4,746 nt of DNA from a virus (Duplodnaviria > Heunggongvirae > Uroviricota > Caudoviricetes). The notes beneath the pieces are model-generated. The model saw only the letters and a program-made list of their open reading frames with translations, was not told the DNA's origin and made no database searches. A program made the translations under genes and the position numbers. Of this stretch, positions 1 to 4,746 are shown one piece after another. The DNA is taken from the IMG/VR virus record IMGVR_UViG_2703718769_000009, positions 1 to 4,746 of that record; one strand, given 5' to 3'. Every line of letters starts with the position of its first letter. The stretch's first letter is position 1.

Positions 1-261
1 AATGAGAAATACACGCGCTGGGTAAAGACACAGCCGTGTGCGTGTTGTGGTAAGCCTGCTGACGATCCGCATCACCTGATTGGTCATGGTCAGGGGGGAA
101 TGGGGACAAAGGCCCACGATATTTTCACGCTACCGTTGTGCCGGGAGCACCACAACGAACTTCATGCAGACCCGCTGGAGTTTGAGAAAAAGTACGGCTC
201 TCAGATTGAGTTAATTTTTCGTTTTCTTGATCACGCCTTTGCGACTGGCGTGCTCGGGTAA
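1..261 (+). CDS. 3' fragment of a phage nin-region protein with Cys/His-rich HNH-like zinc motif (DUF968/YdfU- or NinG-like); 5' end lies outside the window
   Basis: Frame 1 is open from position 1 to TAA at 259-261. Translation ...QPCACCGKPADDPHHLIGHGQGGMGTKAHDIFTLPLCREHHNELH... shows a CxxC...HH...C..HH pattern typical of HNH/zinc-ribbon phage proteins. It sits immediately upstream of rusA, as in lambdoid nin regions. Family name is from recollection, not a search. Confidence 0.6.
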   Translation, partial: NEKYTRWVKTQPCACCGKPADDPHHLIGHGQGGMGTKAHDIFTLPLCREHHNELHADPLEFEKKYGSQIELIFRFLDHAFATGVLG

Positions 262-273
262 AAGAGGTGACTG

Positions 274-633
274 ATGCTCATAGATTTGGTTTTACCTTAC
301 CCGCCGACGGTGAACACTTACTGGAGACGCCGTGGCAGCACATATTTTGTATCAAAAGCAGGGGAGCGTTATCGCCGGGCAGTGGCGCTTATTGTTCGCC
401 AGCAGCGACTGAAATTAAGCCTGTCCGGACGGCTGGCAATAAAAATTATTGCAGAGCCACCGGATAAGCGTCGTCGTGACCTGGACAATATTCTGAAAGC
501 ACCGCTGGATGCGCTGACGCATGCGGGAGTGCTTATTGATGACGAGCAGTTTGATGAAATCAATATTGTACGTGGTCAGCTTGTTCCTGGTGGTCGGTTG
601 GGTGTGAAGATTTACAAAATTGAGAGTGAGTGA
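274..633 (+). CDS. rusA: RusA-family Holliday junction resolvase (crossover junction endodeoxyribonuclease)
   Basis: 119 aa ORF with ATG at 274 preceded by GAGGTG (264-269). Size and sequence features (RRRDLDN, LDAL, GGRL) resemble E. coli RusA. Position between the nin-like gene and the Q-like gene matches lambdoid synteny. Confidence 0.85.
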   Translation: MLIDLVLPYPPTVNTYWRRRGSTYFVSKAGERYRRAVALIVRQQRLKLSLSGRLAIKIIAEPPDKRRRDLDNILKAPLDALTHAGVLIDDEQFDEINIVRGQLVPGGRLGVKIYKIESE

Positions 634-641
634 GCGTAAAT

Positions 642-1172
642 ATGATATATCCGGAAATGACAGGCAAAAGCGGCGAACATTTACGCCTGAACACGCTGGA
701 AGCAGTCTGGATCCAGGGGAAATTACGGATGTGGGGGCGGTGGTCGTATATCGGTGGGGGTAAATCCGGAAATATGTTTAACCGGTTACTGGTTTCGAAA
801 AAGCTGACGAAAACAGCAGTTAATGAGGTTTTACGCAGAATGAAGAAATCCGGGCTGGAAAAACCGGAACTTGAGGCATTTTTTTGGGATATGACCAGAG
901 GGAAGCAGAAGAGCTGGTTGTCACATTGTACAGACGCAGAAGCGTTGATTATTGATCGCGTTATCAGTGAGGTGCTTGGGGAATATCCCGGGCTAATCAA
1001 TGTTCTTCGGCAAAGGTACGAAGGCCGGGGAATGAGTAAGAGAAAAATGGCAGAATGTTTAAATCGTACTCACCCGGAATGGTGTTTCAGCACATGTGAG
1101 AAACGTATTGCAGGTTGGTTAGCCGTGGCTGAACACATGCTTTATGTACCTATGCACGATTCATTTCGATAA
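642..1172 (+). CDS. putative late-gene antiterminator (Q-like), assigned by synteny
   Basis: ORF directly after rusA and directly before a promoter-like site plus strong intrinsic terminator. Contains a Cys cluster (C-x8-C-x3-C with a nearby His) that could bind zinc. Start is uncertain: GTG 630 overlaps the rusA stop (GTGA), ATG 642 and ATG 657 are alternatives. I cannot align it to lambda Q or 933W Q from memory. Confidence 0.55.
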   Translation: MIYPEMTGKSGEHLRLNTLEAVWIQGKLRMWGRWSYIGGGKSGNMFNRLLVSKKLTKTAVNEVLRRMKKSGLEKPELEAFFWDMTRGKQKSWLSHCTDAEALIIDRVISEVLGEYPGLINVLRQRYEGRGMSKRKMAECLNRTHPEWCFSTCEKRIAGWLAVAEHMLYVPMHDSFR

Positions 1173-1178
1173 AAAAGC

Positions 1179-1207
1179 TTGCTTTTTTACGCAGAAACAG
1201 CTTTAAT
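1179..1207 (+). promoter_or_regulatory. candidate sigma70 late promoter (pR'-like): -35 TTGCTT, 17 bp spacer, -10 TTTAAT
   Basis: TTGCTT at 1179-1184 and TTTAAT at 1202-1207, located 7 bp after the Q-like stop and about 60-80 nt upstream of a strong terminator, as for pR'/tR' in lambdoid phages. Confidence 0.35.
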
Positions 1208-1265
1208 TCCTGTAAGCTTGGCAAAGCTGTATCGCGAGGCGAAACGCAAGTTTTTTTTCGCACAA

Positions 1266-1291
1266 GGAAGCCACCTGAAGGTGGTTTTTTT
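1266..1291 (+). terminator. intrinsic terminator, tR'-like
   Basis: Stem GCCACC (1270-1275), loop TGAA, stem GGTGG (1280-1284), followed by T7 (1285-1291). A T8 tract at 1251-1258 sits just upstream. Confidence 0.7.
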
Positions 1292-1414
1292 GTGTCTGCA
1301 ATATACAGCAGCGCCATAAATTCGCTGGTGGTTATTAATACAGTTCTTTCAGCTTGCTGGCTTTTTCGACAAGAGTTATTGGTGTGTCACGTTAACCGGA
1401 AAAGGGAAAAAGGC

Positions 1415-1612
1415 ATGCTAAAACAGCAGGATATGACAGAAACCGCCAGAGTGGTGTTTGATGAATTAAGCGTCACCGAACCGGCGACAGTCGGGGAGAT
1501 TGCGCAGAATACTTACCTTTCACGCGAACGTTGCCAGTTAATACTGACTCAGCTTGTTATGGCGGGTCTGGCAGACTATCAGTTCGGTTGTTACAGACGC
1601 CTTCAGTCCTGA
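1415..1612 (+). CDS. small hypothetical protein (65 aa), possible helix-turn-helix regulator
   Basis: ATG at 1415 preceded by the purine-rich AAAGGGAAAAAGG. Translation MLKQQDMTETARVVFDELSVTEPATVGEIAQNTYLSRERCQLILTQLVMAGLADYQFGCYRRLQS has an HTH-like segment (TVGEIAQNTYLSRERCQLIL). The longer 106 aa version in the ORF track starts at GTG 1292 inside the terminator T-run and has a junk-like N-terminus. Confidence 0.5.
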   Translation: MLKQQDMTETARVVFDELSVTEPATVGEIAQNTYLSRERCQLILTQLVMAGLADYQFGCYRRLQS

Positions 1613-1622
1613 AGGCTTTTTT
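1599..1622 (+). terminator. intrinsic terminator overlapping the stop codon of the small ORF
   Basis: Stem GCCTTCA (1599-1605), loop GTCC, stem TGAAGGC (1610-1616), followed by TTTTTT (1617-1622). The TGA stop (1610-1612) lies inside the 3' arm. Confidence 0.6.
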
Positions 1623-1761
1623 ATTTGTGGTAAATGGGCGGCTGGTGGTGTTAGGGGCACTCACCAGCCATCTGCTCATGCTTCAGGATCACAAGCAAAC
1701 CTCAGGCCCACTGCTTTGCGCAAAAGCAGAATGAGCCTATCAGAGACAGGCTTAATGATCC

Positions 1762-2838
1762 ATGCTTAATACTGTAAAAATACCCAGTTGTGAGTTAATC
1801 AACGCTGACTGCCTGGAATTTATCCAGACCTTACCTGAAAACTCTGTCGATCTGATAGTCACAGACCCGCCATACTTTAAAGTAAAACCCAATGGCTGGG
1901 ATAACCAGTGGAAGGGCGATGAAGATTACCTGAAGTGGCTGGACCTGTGTCTGGCGCAGTTCTGGCGGGTATTAAAGCCCGCGGGAAGCATTTACCTGTT
2001 CTGTGGGCATCGCCTGGCATCGGATATCGAAATCATGATGCGTGAGCGCTTCAGTGTGCTGAACCACATTATCTGGGCGAAGCCGTCCGGACGATGGAAC
2101 GGGTGCAATAAAGAAAGCCTGCGGGCGTATTTCCCGGCCACAGAGCGTATTCTGTTCGCGGAACATTATCAGGGGCCGTACCGCCCGAAAGATGATGGCT
2201 ATGAGGCGAAGGGCAGGGCACTGAAACAGCATGTGATAGCCCCGCTGATTTCTTACTTTCGTGATGCGCGTGCAGCCCTGGGGATAACGGCAAAACAGAT
2301 AGTGGATGCCACGGGCAAGAAAAATATGGCGTCGCACTGGTTTAGTGCCAGTCAGTGGCAGTTACCGAACGAAAGCGATTATCTGAAATTGCAGGCGCTG
2401 TTTGCCAGGGTGGCAGAAGAGAAGCATCAGCGCGGAGAACTGGACAAGCCCCATCACCAACTGGTCAGCACATACAGTGAACTGAACCAGCAGTATACGG
2501 AACTGCAGAGTGAATATAAGCATCTGCGGCGGTATTTCGGTGTGACGGTGCAGGTGCCGTACACCGATGTGTGGACTCATAAACCGGTGCAGTACTATCC
2601 AGGGAAACATCCGTGCGAAAAACCGGCAGAAATGCTGCGGCAGATAATCTGCGCGAGCAGTCGTCCGGGTGACCTGGTGGCGGATTTTTTCATGGGTTCT
2701 GGCTCAACCATAAAAGCAGCTATGGCGCTCGGGCGTCGTGCAACTGGTGTTGAACTGGAGGCAGAACGTTTTGCGCAGACCGTTAAGGAGATTAGTCACA
2801 TCCTTACATGCTCAATTGATGACGGGAAGGATGGATAA
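1762..2838 (+). CDS. beta-class DNA methyltransferase (N6_N4_Mtase type, probably N6-adenine); no adjacent restriction endonuclease, so apparently an orphan
   Basis: 358 aa ORF. Motif IV TDPPY at aa 34-38 (nt 1861-1875) near the N-terminus. Near the C-terminus, HPCEKP followed by DLVADFFMGSGST (AdoMet-binding motif I). Motif IV before motif I indicates beta class; DPPY rather than SPPY favours N6-adenine. A ~260 aa region between the motifs would be the target-recognition domain. Confidence 0.9.
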   Translation: MLNTVKIPSCELINADCLEFIQTLPENSVDLIVTDPPYFKVKPNGWDNQWKGDEDYLKWLDLCLAQFWRVLKPAGSIYLFCGHRLASDIEIMMRERFSVLNHIIWAKPSGRWNGCNKESLRAYFPATERILFAEHYQGPYRPKDDGYEAKGRALKQHVIAPLISYFRDARAALGITAKQIVDATGKKNMASHWFSASQWQLPNESDYLKLQALFARVAEEKHQRGELDKPHHQLVSTYSELNQQYTELQSEYKHLRRYFGVTVQVPYTDVWTHKPVQYYPGKHPCEKPAEMLRQIICASSRPGDLVADFFMGSGSTIKAAMALGRRATGVELEAERFAQTVKEISHILTCSIDDGKDG

Positions 2839-2949
2839 AGATATGGTCAGTTCAGGCTGTGAAGCAAGTAGACAGATAAGGCTACAATAAAAACTGACAA
2901 TAGTAAAATAGCTTTTTCCCAGGTAGTCATGAATACGATCTCTTAAAGC

Positions 2950-2969
2950 GCCCGCTGATACCAGCGGGC
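2950..2969. other. perfect 8 bp GC-rich stem-loop (GCCCGCTG-ATAC-CAGCGGGC) about 110 nt downstream of the methyltransferase stop
   Basis: Exact inverted repeat read from the sequence. No U-tract follows on the + strand; only a short TTT on the - strand. Confidence 0.5.
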
Positions 2970-3231
2970 AATACATACTGGCATTAATGTTAAGTTCAGG
3001 GATAATTCATCGTATTTTGTGGTACGACGCTATCAATGTTAATAAACAGTATTTTTCATGTAAAATTTCTGTTTTTTTGATCTGATTCTCGTTTCCTGGG
3101 TTATGATGTTGTTGTGAACCATGCTGTTGAATGATAATGTTCGGGTATAAAATTGTTGCTGATATGTAGCGCAGTGAGCAGGTGGTATTTCTGTTGCTGA
3201 GTGTACGGATACAGTGCTTCCCTCCCTCAGC

Positions 3232-3240
3232 GGGGGGGGG
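3232..3240. repeat. G9 homopolymer tract, preceded by a complementary C/T-rich run (3217-3227)
   Basis: ggggggggg at 3232-3240. The upstream CTTCCCTCCCT can pair with it in + strand RNA through C-G and U-G pairs. Confidence 0.6.
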
Positions 3241-3610
3241 AAGGTGTGCTGTGGTTTTAGAAACACCGGAAACGAGAATGATGCGGGTTTGCTGGTGCCG
3301 GGATAGAGTCGCCGGAGGTCATGACATAGAGCAAAAAAGGAATGTGCATGCAAATACACACCTCTTCGGAGAGCTCTTCTTTATATGGATGAGCCTCAAG
3401 GTCAATAGTTCATCTGTTATGTATTCATATGTTGTTACTTATATAATCCATACGGGCATATCATCAGTACACACATACTATTATGGCATTTTATTTTTGT
3501 TTTAACTGAATTCCCGGGGCACTCTTTTTGATTTCTGATAAGGAACCAGAATTTTCTGTTAAATGGTGTCACGTTGTAAATGGTTAATGGAAGCAGCTTA
3601 TTATCCATAA

Positions 3611-3634
3611 TCACACCTGAGTTAACAGGTGTGA
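3611..3634. repeat. perfect 9 bp inverted repeat TCACACCTG-AGTTAA-CAGGTGTGA; candidate operator or RNA hairpin
   Basis: Arms 3611-3619 and 3626-3634 are exact reverse complements with a 6 nt spacer. No U-tract on either side. Confidence 0.55.
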
Positions 3635-3967
3635 GAATACTTCCGGGTGGCAGGAACACATCTGACTGATACCAGATTATCAACTTTATTTTACACCATA
3701 CAGTTGAAAACGTTATTCCGCTTGATGGGCATATCACTGTGTCAATAACTATCCATTCCATCTTTTAACCTTCTCGGTACACATTGCTTTCGATTGTTTT
3801 GCTAAAAATCATAGTCAATAAATCAGTGTAACTCATTGAAAAAGATCGTTTTCTTTGTCTTCCTGGGGTTTTCTTTTCTATTTTGTATCACTTTGGTTCA
3901 AGTTGTTTCATTTTTTTGTAATACAAATTAGCAGGATGAGCGGGAATATAAAAAAAATCGGATGTTT

Positions 3968-3995
3968 TTGTAACGGATATTATTTTTTGTAAAAT
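3968..3995 (+). promoter_or_regulatory. candidate sigma70 promoter for the downstream esterase gene: -35 TTGTAA, 16 bp spacer, -10 TAAAAT
   Basis: TTGTAA at 3968-3973 and TAAAAT at 3990-3995, about 65 nt upstream of ATG 4062. Embedded in three direct copies of TTTTTGTAA (3913-3921, 3965-3973, 3984-3992). Confidence 0.3.
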
Positions 3996-4061
3996 AATGT
4001 ATTTTTATTTAAATCTCTCTCAGAAAAGAATTTATTGTTCCTTTATATGGTGGAAAAGGTC

Positions 4062-4746
4062 ATGGTATTTAAACACTACGATGTGGTCAGGGCGGCGTCG
4101 CCGTCAGACCTTGCTGAACGACTGACACAAAAACTGAAGGAGGGGTGGCAGCCATTTGGCAGTCCGGTGGCCATCACGCCTTATACACTGATGCAGGCCA
4201 TTGCCGCAGAGGGTGATGTGACCACGCCTGTGGTTGTGCCCGACACAGGGGCTGGTGGCTCTCCGGGAGTGGCTACCACTGAACCGGAGTATTACTACGT
4301 TATTCCCCTGGCCGGGCAGTCGAACGGTATGTCCTATGGTGAGGGGCTTCCTCTGCCGGAGACCTATGATCGCCCTGACTCCCGTATTAAGCAGCTGGCG
4401 CGTCGCAGCACTGTGACGCCGGGTGGTGATACCTGTGCATACAATGACGTTATTCAGGCAGACCACTGTCTGCATGACGTCATTGATATGAGTGGATTCA
4501 ACCACCCACGGGCCGACCTGACAAAGGGGCAGTATGGTTGTGTGGGGCAGGGGCTGCATATTGCCAAAAAGCTTCTGCCGTTCATTCCGGTAAATGCAGG
4601 TATTCTCCTGGTTCCGTGCTGTCGTGGTGGCTCAGCATTCACCTCCGGAGATGATGGCGCATTTACTGAGTCTACCGGTGCTTCCGCCAGCTCAGCCCGA
4701 TGGGGAGTGGGTAAACCGTTGTATCAGGATTTTCTCTTCCGTACAA
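4062..4746 (+). CDS. nanS-p: 5' part of a prophage 9-O-acetyl-sialate esterase-like protein (NanS-p-like; DUF1737-type N-terminus plus SGNH/SASA esterase domain); 3' end lies outside the window
   Basis: ATG 4062 with GGTGG 8 nt upstream; frame open to the window end (228+ codons). Translation MVFKHYDVVRAASPSDLAERLTQKLKEGWQPFGSPVAITPYTLMQ... then YYYVIPLAGQSNGMSYG with the GQSN catalytic-serine block (nt 4314-4325). GC-rich with E. coli-like codon usage. Not in the ORF track because it has no stop in the window. In Stx phages this gene family lies directly downstream of stxB. Confidence 0.75.
   Translation, partial: MVFKHYDVVRAASPSDLAERLTQKLKEGWQPFGSPVAITPYTLMQAIAAEGDVTTPVVVPDTGAGGSPGVATTEPEYYYVIPLAGQSNGMSYGEGLPLPETYDRPDSRIKQLARRSTVTPGGDTCAYNDVIQADHCLHDVIDMSGFNHPRADLTKGQYGCVGQGLHIAKKLLPFIPVNAGILLVPCCRGGSAFTSGDDGAFTESTGASASSARWGVGKPLYQDFLFRT

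Follow-up and report, generated by a model that had tools for sequence, protein, structure and literature searches.

The stretch of DNA analysed here (the window; 4,746 nucleotides, positions 1 to 4,746 of the tailed-phage record IMGVR_UViG_2703718769_000009) carries a Q-like gene (DUF1133/Phage_antitermQ) and a DNA methyltransferase gene, followed by an AT-rich interval at 2839-4061 and then by nanS-p. GC content is 0.372 over the interval, against 0.518 in the methyltransferase CDS and 0.561 in the nanS-p part, and reaches 0.511 at 3180-3400. Three hairpin loci with dG <= -14 are found across the island, compared with 0.08 expected from shuffles, and none of 100 dinucleotide shuffles matched this count in the whole-island scan. 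They lie at 2950-2969 (dG -17.4, z -5.4), at 3217-3244 (dG -22, z -2.7; plus strand only) and at 3611-3634 (dG -14.5, z -5.1). An earlier note on this DNA had described an AT-rich island with sharp edges, a GC-richer core at about 3180-3400 and these three hairpins, all of which are confirmed by the figures given. The features of the interval are as follows.

2839-3094: segment downstream of the methyltransferase gene, common to prophages with the same methyltransferase (alignments)
2941-3030, minus strand: candidate small RNA of ~90 nt, convergent with the methyltransferase gene (conservation and predicted fold)
3036-3064, minus strand: predicted sigma-70 promoter of the candidate RNA, with -35 TTTACA (3064-3059), a 17-nt spacer and -10 TAACAT (3041-3036) (9/12 in a consensus scan)
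3039-3359, minus strand: spurious-looking ORF of ~106 aa (no family match)
3095-3360: lineage-specific non-coding filler where relatives have tRNAs and STnc100, holding the GC-richer core and the C-rich/G9 hairpin 3217-3244 (BLAST)
3182-3505, plus strand: spurious-looking ORF of ~106 aa (no family match)
3333-3358, minus strand: predicted iraM terminator, a hairpin (3358 to 3341) followed by a U6 tract (3338 to 3333) (fold)
3361-3390, plus strand: probable STnc100 terminator vestige, CCTCTTCGGAGAGCTCTTCTTTAT against the canonical GCCCCTCTCCGGAGGGGCTTTT (BLAST homology)
3435-3761, minus strand: intact iraM-family anti-adaptor gene of 108 aa (NCBIfam, PDB, PHROG and RefSeq matches)
3611-3634: incidental palindrome in the iraM CDS, over the codons for TPVNSGV (allele alignment)
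3762-3908, minus strand: iraM 5' flank common to the closest alleles (78% HSP to the related loci L003 and L005)
3909-4061: lineage-specific, extremely AT-rich stretch directly upstream of nanS-p (BLAST and GC content)

Apart from the iraM-family gene, the interval may be divided into four parts, namely the segment after the methyltransferase gene with its conserved hairpin, the decaying filler, the iraM promoter region and the AT-rich DNA upstream of nanS-p. Most of what the island holds is ordinary and has been annotated before, the candidate RNA being the one modest new lead; what lies beside iraM is promoter DNA, a decayed STnc100 remnant and a short conserved element that may be an undescribed small RNA.

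The iraM-family gene and its slot

Judged by its sequence relationships, the ORF of 108 aa at 3435-3761 belongs to the iraM family, and the gene is intact and under purifying selection. Its product matches the NCBIfam model NF007393 (IraM; PRK09919) with 144.2 bits against a curated cutoff of 121 (E 1.6e-42, residues 1-107 of 108) and phrog_4407 at E 3.3e-55. The solved IraM, PDB 8TWD chain A, is matched by phmmer at E 2e-29 with residues 1-77 ungapped, a comparison that expresses sequence similarity to the IraM core (residues 1-78, a PmrD-like beta-barrel). The identity of the gene is already known, as the identical protein is named iraM in RefSeq (WP_001443281.1) and is annotated at the same coordinates in O111, O121 and O103 genomes. 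In the PHROGs resource, phrog_4407 is listed as 'unknown function'. Comparison with the L003 and L005 alleles, which are 84% identical, gives a dN/dS of 0.15-0.17, and across seven iraM alleles 45 columns are invariant, including C81, C92, C97, C102 and the ICPYG motif.

The description of the island as ORF-free cannot stand beside this gene, nor can the central reading of a non-coding island, since 27% of it is intact, selected and annotated iraM and the promoter and terminator flanks of the gene explain more. A translated or nucleotide search had been expected, if it undid that reading, to reveal a known gene in frameshifted form; a known gene was indeed found, in an intact state. The characterisation of the ORFs as junk-like fails for 3435-3761, but is apt for 3039-3359 (minus) and 3182-3505 (plus), neither of which has a match in Pfam, NCBIfam, PHROGs or PADLOC, or by tblastn in 50,697 phage records. 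These two ORFs overlap on opposite strands in DNA of locally GC-richer composition, which might suggest that 3039-3505, outside iraM, is the decayed remnant of a protein cargo such as a toxin or endonuclease. This origin is nevertheless very improbable, given the lack of any match for either ORF, the absence of PGAP annotation there in nearly all carrier genomes and the fact that the slot holds RNA genes and no CDS in relatives.

The hairpin at 3611-3634 lies within the iraM CDS. The palindrome is perfect in the window lineage only, with a mismatch in both L003 and L005 and a 6-nt insertion in L005 as well, and its candidacy as a conserved site was rejected on finding it unconserved in L006, L010 and K-12.

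BLAST comparison of the island with related loci reveals a mosaic structure. The window from 3361 to 3908/3918 forms a module of ~550 bp with a 78% HSP to L003 and L005, in otherwise different contexts. In Stx2a and Stx2c phages, iraM is found on the minus strand between stx2B/STnc100 and nanS-p, and in other prophages, in the same orientation, between tRNAs/STnc100 and nanS-p or DUF1737. The tRNAs and STnc100 that precede iraM in relatives have been lost here: ARAGORN detected no tRNA in the window, and STnc100 is represented by a terminator vestige. The gene at the iraM position is a pseudogene in L004 and L028 and is apparently interrupted in NZ_CP027435.1, and in the set L029, L030, L004 and L028 the module is either absent or pseudogenised. 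The gene is thus dispensable, as shown by these broken copies in some related prophages.

The term moron (Juhala et al. 2000, as used in PMC4104026) denotes an extra late-operon gene, located after PR', that carries a promoter and a terminator of its own, is of atypical composition and occurs in some related phages but not in others. The iraM module is located in the late region, has a GC content of 0.36 between flanks of 0.52-0.56, is patchily present and has a predicted promoter and terminator. The interval is very likely to be a lambdoid prophage late-region moron slot with an intact, opposite-strand iraM-family cargo that by homology would act on RssB. It lies downstream of Q/PR' and the orphan DNA methyltransferase gene and upstream of nanS-p, and equals the stx slot of Stx phages.

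Gene flanks and the STnc100 position

Upstream of iraM on the minus strand are a Shine-Dalgarno sequence, AGAAGG (3774-3769), and a -10-like hexamer, TATGAT (3803-3798), for which no good -35 was found. The -10 column of five alleles reads TATGAT, TATACT, TATGTT, TATAAT and TATACT. A scan for the PhoP box KGTTTA-N5-KGTTTA with <= 2 mismatches gave 0 sites in the window, where chance alone would give 1.5, and the upstream region did not align with that of K-12 iraM. On the 3' side of the gene, the minus-strand fold from 3372 to 3325, which contains the predicted terminator, has an energy of -11.8 kcal/mol (z -2.5).

The stretch at 3909-4061 has a GC content of 0.255, three TTTTTTGTAA-type repeats and, in a consensus scan, promoter-like matches on both strands. 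Together with the iraM 5' flank it makes 3762-4061 a putative divergent iraM/nanS-p promoter region. AT-rich DNA gained horizontally is a typical target of H-NS, and Battesti et al. 2012 reportedly found K-12 iraM to be repressed by this protein; H-NS binding, an option raised in the earlier note, is plausible at the very AT-rich 3762-4061. It is rather unlikely, however, that control of nanS-p and/or iraM through H-NS silencing is the chief role of the AT-rich DNA. The GC content of 0.255-0.32 across 3762-4061, the divergent layout, the promoter-like sites on both strands and the TTTTTTGTAA repeats are all consistent with silencing, but they concern just ~300 bp of the island, and nanS-p is normally transcribed within the Q-dependent late operon. 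Silencing would moreover be compatible with the iraM explanation and not an alternative to it.

The filler at 3095-3360 has no BLAST homology to L003, L004 or L005. Homology to L003 and L005 begins at 3361, within their STnc100 terminator matches, and a vestige at ~3205-3390 occupies the STnc100 slot, on the plus strand directly upstream of iraM and convergent with it. Alignment of this sequence with seven STnc100 copies gives 43-50% identity, compared with 64-81% among the canonical copies themselves. Membership of the STnc100 family (RF02076, gathering threshold 47 bits) was rejected by every model-based test, and the sequence is kept as a probable vestige. There was no Rfam match to the family at E <= 1 in the window or E <= 10 over the island, while seven copies in related loci score 132-158 bits; an nhmmer profile returned nothing at E <= 1000, with a positive control of 2e-64; and a custom covariance model run with filters off produced just fragments of 4.4 and 2.2 bits, the latter at 3362-3371. 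The local fold at 3361-3390 is weak (-10.4 kcal/mol, z -2.0).

A functional, highly diverged sRNA of the STnc100/PasD family at 3180-3390, as opposed to a dead remnant, is improbable. In its favour are the exact syntenic position and strand, a series of colinear motifs at matching distances (CCCTCAGCGGGG, TGCGGGTT, GCCGGAGG..CATG, then a 3' end resembling a terminator) and local scores against some copies that exceed those of shuffles (z up to 4.4); PasD and STnc100, moreover, are related at the structure level only (bioRxiv 10.64898/2026.05.13.724894). Against it, in addition to the failed model searches, the sequence has lost both the long-range helix and the CCGGG/CCCGG hairpin, its terminator is weakened and the filler fold has a z of -0.94, compared with -2.65 for a canonical STnc100 copy. 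The G-tract of the 3217-3244 hairpin varies in length between strains, its outer stem is broken in relatives, a 64-nt deletion occurs in relatives, and the hairpin, the first of the putative sRNA, is deleted in L019 and L023.

The filler is unconstrained and decaying, and took the place of the tRNA-STnc100 module of relatives. Since the GC-richer core sits where relatives carry tRNAs and STnc100, and keeps only an sRNA vestige, it is, on comparative sequence grounds, the decayed remnant of an RNA module. The suggestion of a decayed remnant made in the earlier note was thus sound as to the core, but the lost cargo was RNA and not a toxin or endonuclease gene. Two other origins for 3095-3360 were considered. 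Derivation by deletion from an L003-like tRNA region yielded marginal patches only, with one colinear patch at 3159-3196 (6-16 of 200 shuffles being as good) and a 12-mer in common with tRNA-Gly, and a search for a plasmid origin gave no match.

A candidate small RNA beside the methyltransferase gene

The segment at 2839-3094 shares 85% identity with L003, and 2929-3100 shares 76% with L004. In other prophages with the same methyltransferase, the counterpart of this segment is followed by a tRNA cluster. The element at 2935-3070 was found in 42 of 5426 complete E. coli genomes. Read on the minus strand from 3030 to 2941, the candidate RNA would have a stem-loop of variable sequence at its 5' end, then ~25 nt of unpaired A/U-rich sequence, a small hairpin and the GC hairpin (2969 to 2950), followed by GCUUUAAGAG. 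The same three-helix fold is predicted for all variants, the 5' stem persisting through changes on one side of it. A 3' core of ~55 nt is near-invariant (1-2 differences), in contrast to the flanks, where 33-46% of positions vary (Fisher p 5e-7 to 1e-9). The promoter hexamers are likewise kept across lineages (TTTACA/TTCACA and TAACAT/TAATAT) while the spacer sequence varies, and the better -10, TAATAT, is present in all 29 of 29 close relatives. On the minus strand, the 2950-2969 hairpin has a stem of 8-9 bp (dG -17.5, z -4.3) and a tail of GCUUUAAGAG, or GCUUUUAAGAG in three lineages; the tail on the plus strand is without a U run, and the hairpin is missing from the intrinsic terminators listed by a consensus scan.

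These properties, together with an architecture and position like those of the convergent prophage moron-site sRNAs of Tree et al. (PMC4104026), suggest a ~90-nt minus-strand sRNA with its own promoter. Structured RNA of this kind as the main content of the interval is conceivable, if somewhat less probable than not, and could coexist with the iraM explanation; the RNA may regulate host targets or sRNAs in trans, or may be a cis-acting antisense RNA to read-through late or methyltransferase transcripts. Several observations weigh on the other side. No two-sided compensatory changes were seen across the three sequence lineages; as two of the three helices are also invariant, covariation is uninformative either way. 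The number of lineages stayed at three after further scans: 17 viral contigs with the element were all of the window lineage, a genome scan for further variants gave 0 matches, and three metagenome contigs reproduced the three known lineages. The U-tract, GCUUUAAGAG, is poor. No trans target within the window scored better than shuffles. There was no Rfam match, including to AgvB (RF02702), AsxR (RF02703) and Esr41 (RF02676), and searches at E <= 1 over the window and E <= 10 over 2839-4061 returned just noise on 2950-2969 (Trp_leader, 17 bits; CRISPR-DR9, 15 bits). Other possible readings of the identical patch are a joint left by recombination among mosaic phages and a plus-strand element such as an mRNA 3' stabiliser.

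The candidate RNA was also compared with the Pas RNAs. The element at 2935-3070 is absent from E2348/69, an EPEC strain in the genome collection, and as this is the strain that defines PasA-D, the candidate is not one of them; its sequence had no match in the supplement of the Pas preprint.

It is a tentative proposal, and rather doubtful as a whole, that the ~55-nt element and conserved minus-strand promoter encode an undescribed prophage sRNA of ~90 nt, convergent with the late operon, with its unpaired A/U-rich stretch used for regulation or sponging in trans, or else with a cis-antisense role in restraining late read-through in lysogens. The idea of structured RNA in the island, raised in the earlier note, is accordingly retained for the 2950-2969 hairpin, a conserved element that could be part of a small RNA, and given up for 3611-3634, which is unconserved coding sequence, and for the variable hairpin at 3217-3244, deleted in two relatives. 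If expressed, the RNA would add a member to the convergent moron-site sRNAs; the sRNA and a non-PhoP-regulated iraM allele would then be two independent handles on host stress physiology.

Proposed function and relation to known systems

By homology with proteins of known mechanism (K-12 IraM and IraL; PMC10844676, PMC4045071), the 108-aa protein would bind the adaptor RssB and block delivery of RpoS to ClpXP, so that a lysogen expressing it would accumulate RpoS and gain stress tolerance. With its own Shine-Dalgarno sequence, a conserved -10 and a predicted terminator, window iraM would be expected to be expressed while the prophage is repressed, and late transcription under Q control would cross it antisense. 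No experimental work on phage-borne iraM alleles was found in the literature searched. The interval formerly taken for a non-coding island has as its main cargo a known kind of lysogenic-conversion gene. In many lambdoid prophages, Stx2a and Stx2c phages among them, iraM-family anti-adaptors lie in or beside the stx slot, a point of modest value for the study of STEC.

K-12 IraM (YcgW) is an RssB anti-adaptor induced by Mg2+ starvation via PhoPQ (PMC10844676; PDB 8TWD). The window protein belongs to the same family by curated HMM, is of similar length (108 against 107 aa) and 55% identical, and shares the four cysteines and the ICPYG C-terminal motif. Both genes are AT-rich and lie next to or within prophage DNA. 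Nine of 14 RssB-contact residues are identical in the two proteins and the rest are conservative changes (residue list from PMC10844676). Within the three contact clusters defined in the IraM-RssB crystal structure (PMC10844676), identity extends to 5/5 RssB-NTD contacts in cluster I (I4, I6, W22, K26, I42), 2/5 in cluster II (T13S, C14S and L75I substituted) and 2/4 in cluster III (H63N and I64V substituted). The overall identity of 55% and the five differing interface residues would count against function of the window allele. The two genes also differ in setting, as K-12 iraM is at the edge of the e14 element and the window gene in a moron slot, within the late region of a lambdoid prophage that looks intact, with an unrelated upstream region. 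Because the window allele is without the K-12 PhoP box, RpoS stabilisation by it may answer a different signal.

IraL of UPEC CFT073 is an IraM homologue, ~59% identical to K-12 IraM, and represents a diverged allele that still stabilises RpoS, although it binds RssB differently from IraM (PMC4045071). Like the window gene, it is found on horizontally acquired DNA with its own regulation. IraL differs in its location on the potB island, its log-phase role and its contacts with the RssB N-terminal domain only.

Among RNAs, the closest parallels to the candidate are AsxR (RF02703) and AgvB (RF02702) (PMC4104026), which are also short, convergent to a CDS downstream of PR' and variable towards the 5' end, with a conserved 3' portion that ends in a GC hairpin. 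The candidate is longer (~90 nt against 51-60 nt), has a poor U-tract and no Rfam match, and is carried by just 42 of 5426 complete genomes. STnc100 (RF02076), which overlaps EcOnc27/sRNA103 downstream of stx2B and is related to PasD, shares with the window its syntenic position, the terminator vestige at 3361-3390 and colinear fragments, but the window sequence fails the model tests, has lost key helices and is polymorphic or deleted in relatives.

The iraM-like genes of Stx2a and Stx2c phages (for example LC567829 'iraM' and FJ188381, phage 1717, ACI43140; phrog_4407) are of the same family, with 60-63% amino acid identity to the window protein. These phages keep a canonical STnc100, with stx and tRNAs upstream, whereas the window lineage is without these and has a different 5' flank. 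The iraM-like gene nonetheless lies in the same antisense slot, which in the Stx phages is that between stx2B/STnc100 and nanS-p.

Gene order and composition

The window comes from a lambdoid prophage and corresponds to its late-regulatory region; chromosomes of O121:H19 and other STEC/EPEC strains are annotated with the same gene order. Comparing the island between the methyltransferase gene and nanS-p with three diverged relatives by BLAST revealed a mosaic, with homology to the relatives resuming at the nanS-p start.

Features of the window, with the BLAST-defined segments of the island
to 261, DUF968/NinG-like C-terminus
274-633, RusA
630-1172, DUF1133/Q-family protein
after the Q-family gene and before the TrmB-like ORF, PR'/tR'-like gap
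1415-1612, TrmB-like ORF, 65 aa
1762-2838, orphan N6/N4 DNA methyltransferase
2839-4061, island
2839-3094, island segment common to other methyltransferase-bearing prophages
3095-3360, island segment, lineage-specific
3361-3908, iraM module (74-nt 3' flank, CDS and ~150 nt of 5' flank), 78% identical to related loci L003 and L005
3909-4061, island segment, lineage-specific and extremely AT-rich (GC 0.255)
from 4062, nanS-p DUF1737 N-terminus

The compositional boundaries described in the earlier note were confirmed (GC 0.372 for 2839-4061 vs 0.518 for the methyltransferase CDS and 0.561 for the nanS-p part), as were a GC-richer core (GC 0.51 at 3180-3400) and three hairpins, at 2950-2969, 3217-3244 and 3611-3634 (dG -17.4, -22 and -14.5 kcal/mol). 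These hairpins exceed chance: a sliding scan of the island found three loci at dG <= -14, where 0.08 would be expected from shuffles, and none of 100 shuffles reached three.

Upstream, the gap 3' of the Q-family gene (1172-1300) contains the hairpin CCACCTGAAGGTGG, which with its trailing T7 resembles a terminator on the + strand (~1271-1291); the consensus scan lists the hairpin on the - strand as well. The gap has no Rfam match. The arrangement looks like a PR'/tR' region giving a short leader RNA, a prediction that resembles the StxS-type transcript of Stx phages. The 65-aa ORF (within 1415-1625) has a weak TrmB-type HTH match (phrog_331, E 3e-37), and is closed by a strong intrinsic terminator (1599-1616 and a T6 tract). 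All related prophages retain this ORF 5' of the methyltransferase gene. At the other end of the island, a TTTTTTGTAA-type motif occurs three times (3912, 3964 and 3983, within 3912-3997) in the 25% GC lineage-specific stretch just upstream of nanS-p. The repeats may be a binding site for a regulator or a nucleoid protein, or reflect nothing more than low sequence complexity.

The iraM gene and its slot

The island had been described as ORF-free, with junk ORFs only, a claim that does not hold for 3435-3761 (-). This 108-aa ORF is an iraM-family gene (K-12 IraM is an RssB anti-adaptor), scoring 144.2 bits against the NCBIfam model (cutoff 121) and matching the solved IraM chain 8TWD (E 2e-29, residues 1-77) and PHROG 4407 (E 3e-55). 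The phrog_4407 entry still carries the label 'unknown function' in PHROGs. An identical protein, WP_001443281.1, is annotated as iraM by RefSeq PGAP at the same position in at least 28 complete genomes (O111, O121, O103, O39). The window allele was compared with six others, from two prophages (84% aa identity), an Stx2a phage, two other prophages/phages and K-12. The 45 invariant columns, which include four cysteines and a C-terminal ICPYG, together with dN/dS of 0.15-0.17 against the closest alleles, establish that the ORF is a gene under purifying selection. The IraM-RssB crystal structure (PMC10844676) defines 14 IraM contact residues; the window protein has nine of them unchanged, among these the full set of five contacting the RssB receiver domain, and its differences at the other five positions are conservative. 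The 3611-3634 hairpin sits in the iraM codons for TPVNSGV and is treated as incidental, because the perfect palindrome is confined to the window lineage.

A member of the iraM family occurs in 4726 of the 5426 complete E. coli genomes, but the window's particular island in only ~29. Many lambdoid elements carry a family member at this location and in this orientation: antisense between stx2B and nanS-p (yjhS) in Stx2a/Stx2c phages, and flanked by a tRNA cluster on one side and nanS-p or DUF1737 on the other in further prophages. Tree et al. (PMC4104026) described this location, downstream of PR', as the 'moron' slot. At the iraM position, two related loci (L004, 4907-5035; L028, 3503-3631) have a short pseudogene annotated 'internal stop; incomplete', and two more (L029, L030) have no annotated gene; iraM has therefore been lost repeatedly from the slot. 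In NZ_CP027435.1 (strain 2014C-3599, ~1987525-1989176) the spacing between the island halves exceeds that of the window by ~1.27 kb, which hints that an element, perhaps an IS, has inserted in or beside iraM.

Structured elements of the island

In every relative examined, a canonical STnc100 (a known phage sRNA family, RF02076; + strand, 132-158 bits in Rfam) ends immediately 3' of the convergent iraM, with tRNAs upstream in most. STnc100 overlaps EcOnc27/sRNA103, an RNA detected by experiment downstream of stx2B (PMC12711010). In the Stx2a and Stx2c phages (L006/L007, 4671-5216) 11 nt separate the end of STnc100 from the stop codon of the iraM homologue, so that a single GC hairpin serves both genes as a bidirectional 3' end; phage vB_EcoS-640R1 has two tandem-spaced copies (4198-4391, 4667-4855) upstream of its iraM homologue.

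No model-based test found STnc100 in the window: Rfam at E <= 10 and an nhmmer profile (positive control 2e-64) gave no match, and a custom CM with filters off returned fragments of 4.4 and 2.2 bits only. No tRNA was found in the window. BLAST homology to the relatives starts at 3361, inside their STnc100 terminator, and a forced alignment yields fragments in the same order and at matching intervals, with identity of 43-50% vs 64-81% among canonical copies. The GC-richer core is most likely the wreck of a tRNA-STnc100 module. Its G-tract (3228-3236) varies in length between otherwise near-identical prophages (L001, L002, L011-L025); nearly all close relatives have GCAGG in place of the window's GAAGG, a change that breaks the outer stem of the 3217-3244 hairpin; L019 and L023 lack the whole hairpin through loss of 64 nt between direct GCAGGTG repeats; and the predicted fold of the stretch is no more stable than that of shuffled sequence (z -0.94). 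From these observations it is concluded that the core is unconstrained DNA. Its two overlapping ~106-aa ORFs have no match in Pfam, NCBIfam, PHROGs or PADLOC, or by tblastn against phages.

The 2950-2969 hairpin region may be the one new part of the island. A ~55-nt core containing the hairpin shows 1-2 differences across the three available lineages, vs 33-46% of positions in its flanks (Fisher p 5e-7 to 1e-9). This contrast may reflect a recombination patch, or an element with a + strand function. A minus-strand sRNA of ~90 nt (3030->2941) is a tentative reading, to which somewhat less than even weight is given. Its predicted promoter, TTTACA-N17-TAACAT, keeps both hexamers while the spacer varies; the -10 (3036-3041) is TAACAT in the window vs TAATAT in all 29 close relatives (complete genomes), and this single difference is what keeps every genome short of full identity across 2935-3070. 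The same fold is predicted in all variants: a variable 5' stem-loop, a ~25-nt unpaired A/U-rich stretch, a small hairpin, a GC hairpin and a poor U-tract. Covariation is uninformative, with two helices invariant and zero two-sided changes. Viral, genome and metagenome scans gave no new lineages, the candidate matches no Rfam family (AgvB, AsxR and Esr41 included) and the element is absent from E2348/69, the strain defining the Pas sRNAs. The non-coding reading of the island holds only in part, for an sRNA vestige, a candidate sRNA and AT-rich promoter DNA; the original observation is largely accounted for by an already-annotated gene, and the candidate RNA is the one modest new lead.

Predicted expression and proposed action of iraM

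Predicted expression signals comprise a Shine-Dalgarno AGAAGG 7 nt from the ATG, a putative hairpin plus U6 downstream of the stop codon, and a -10-like hexamer kept in five alleles (TATGAT, TATACT, TATGTT, TATAAT, TATACT), with no good -35 in the upstream region. The orientation of iraM against the late operon suggests that it would be expressed from its own putative promoter while the prophage is repressed, and would later meet antisense interference once Q-dependent transcription starts. K-12 IraM responds to Mg2+ starvation through PhoPQ (PMC11825808, PMC10844676). The upstream region of K-12 iraM is unrelated to that of the window gene, for which no PhoP box was found, so that this logic is not simply transferable. 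From its homology to K-12 IraM and IraL (PMC10844676, PMC4045071), the window protein would be expected to bind RssB, keeping RpoS away from ClpXP and raising RpoS-dependent stress tolerance in the lysogen.
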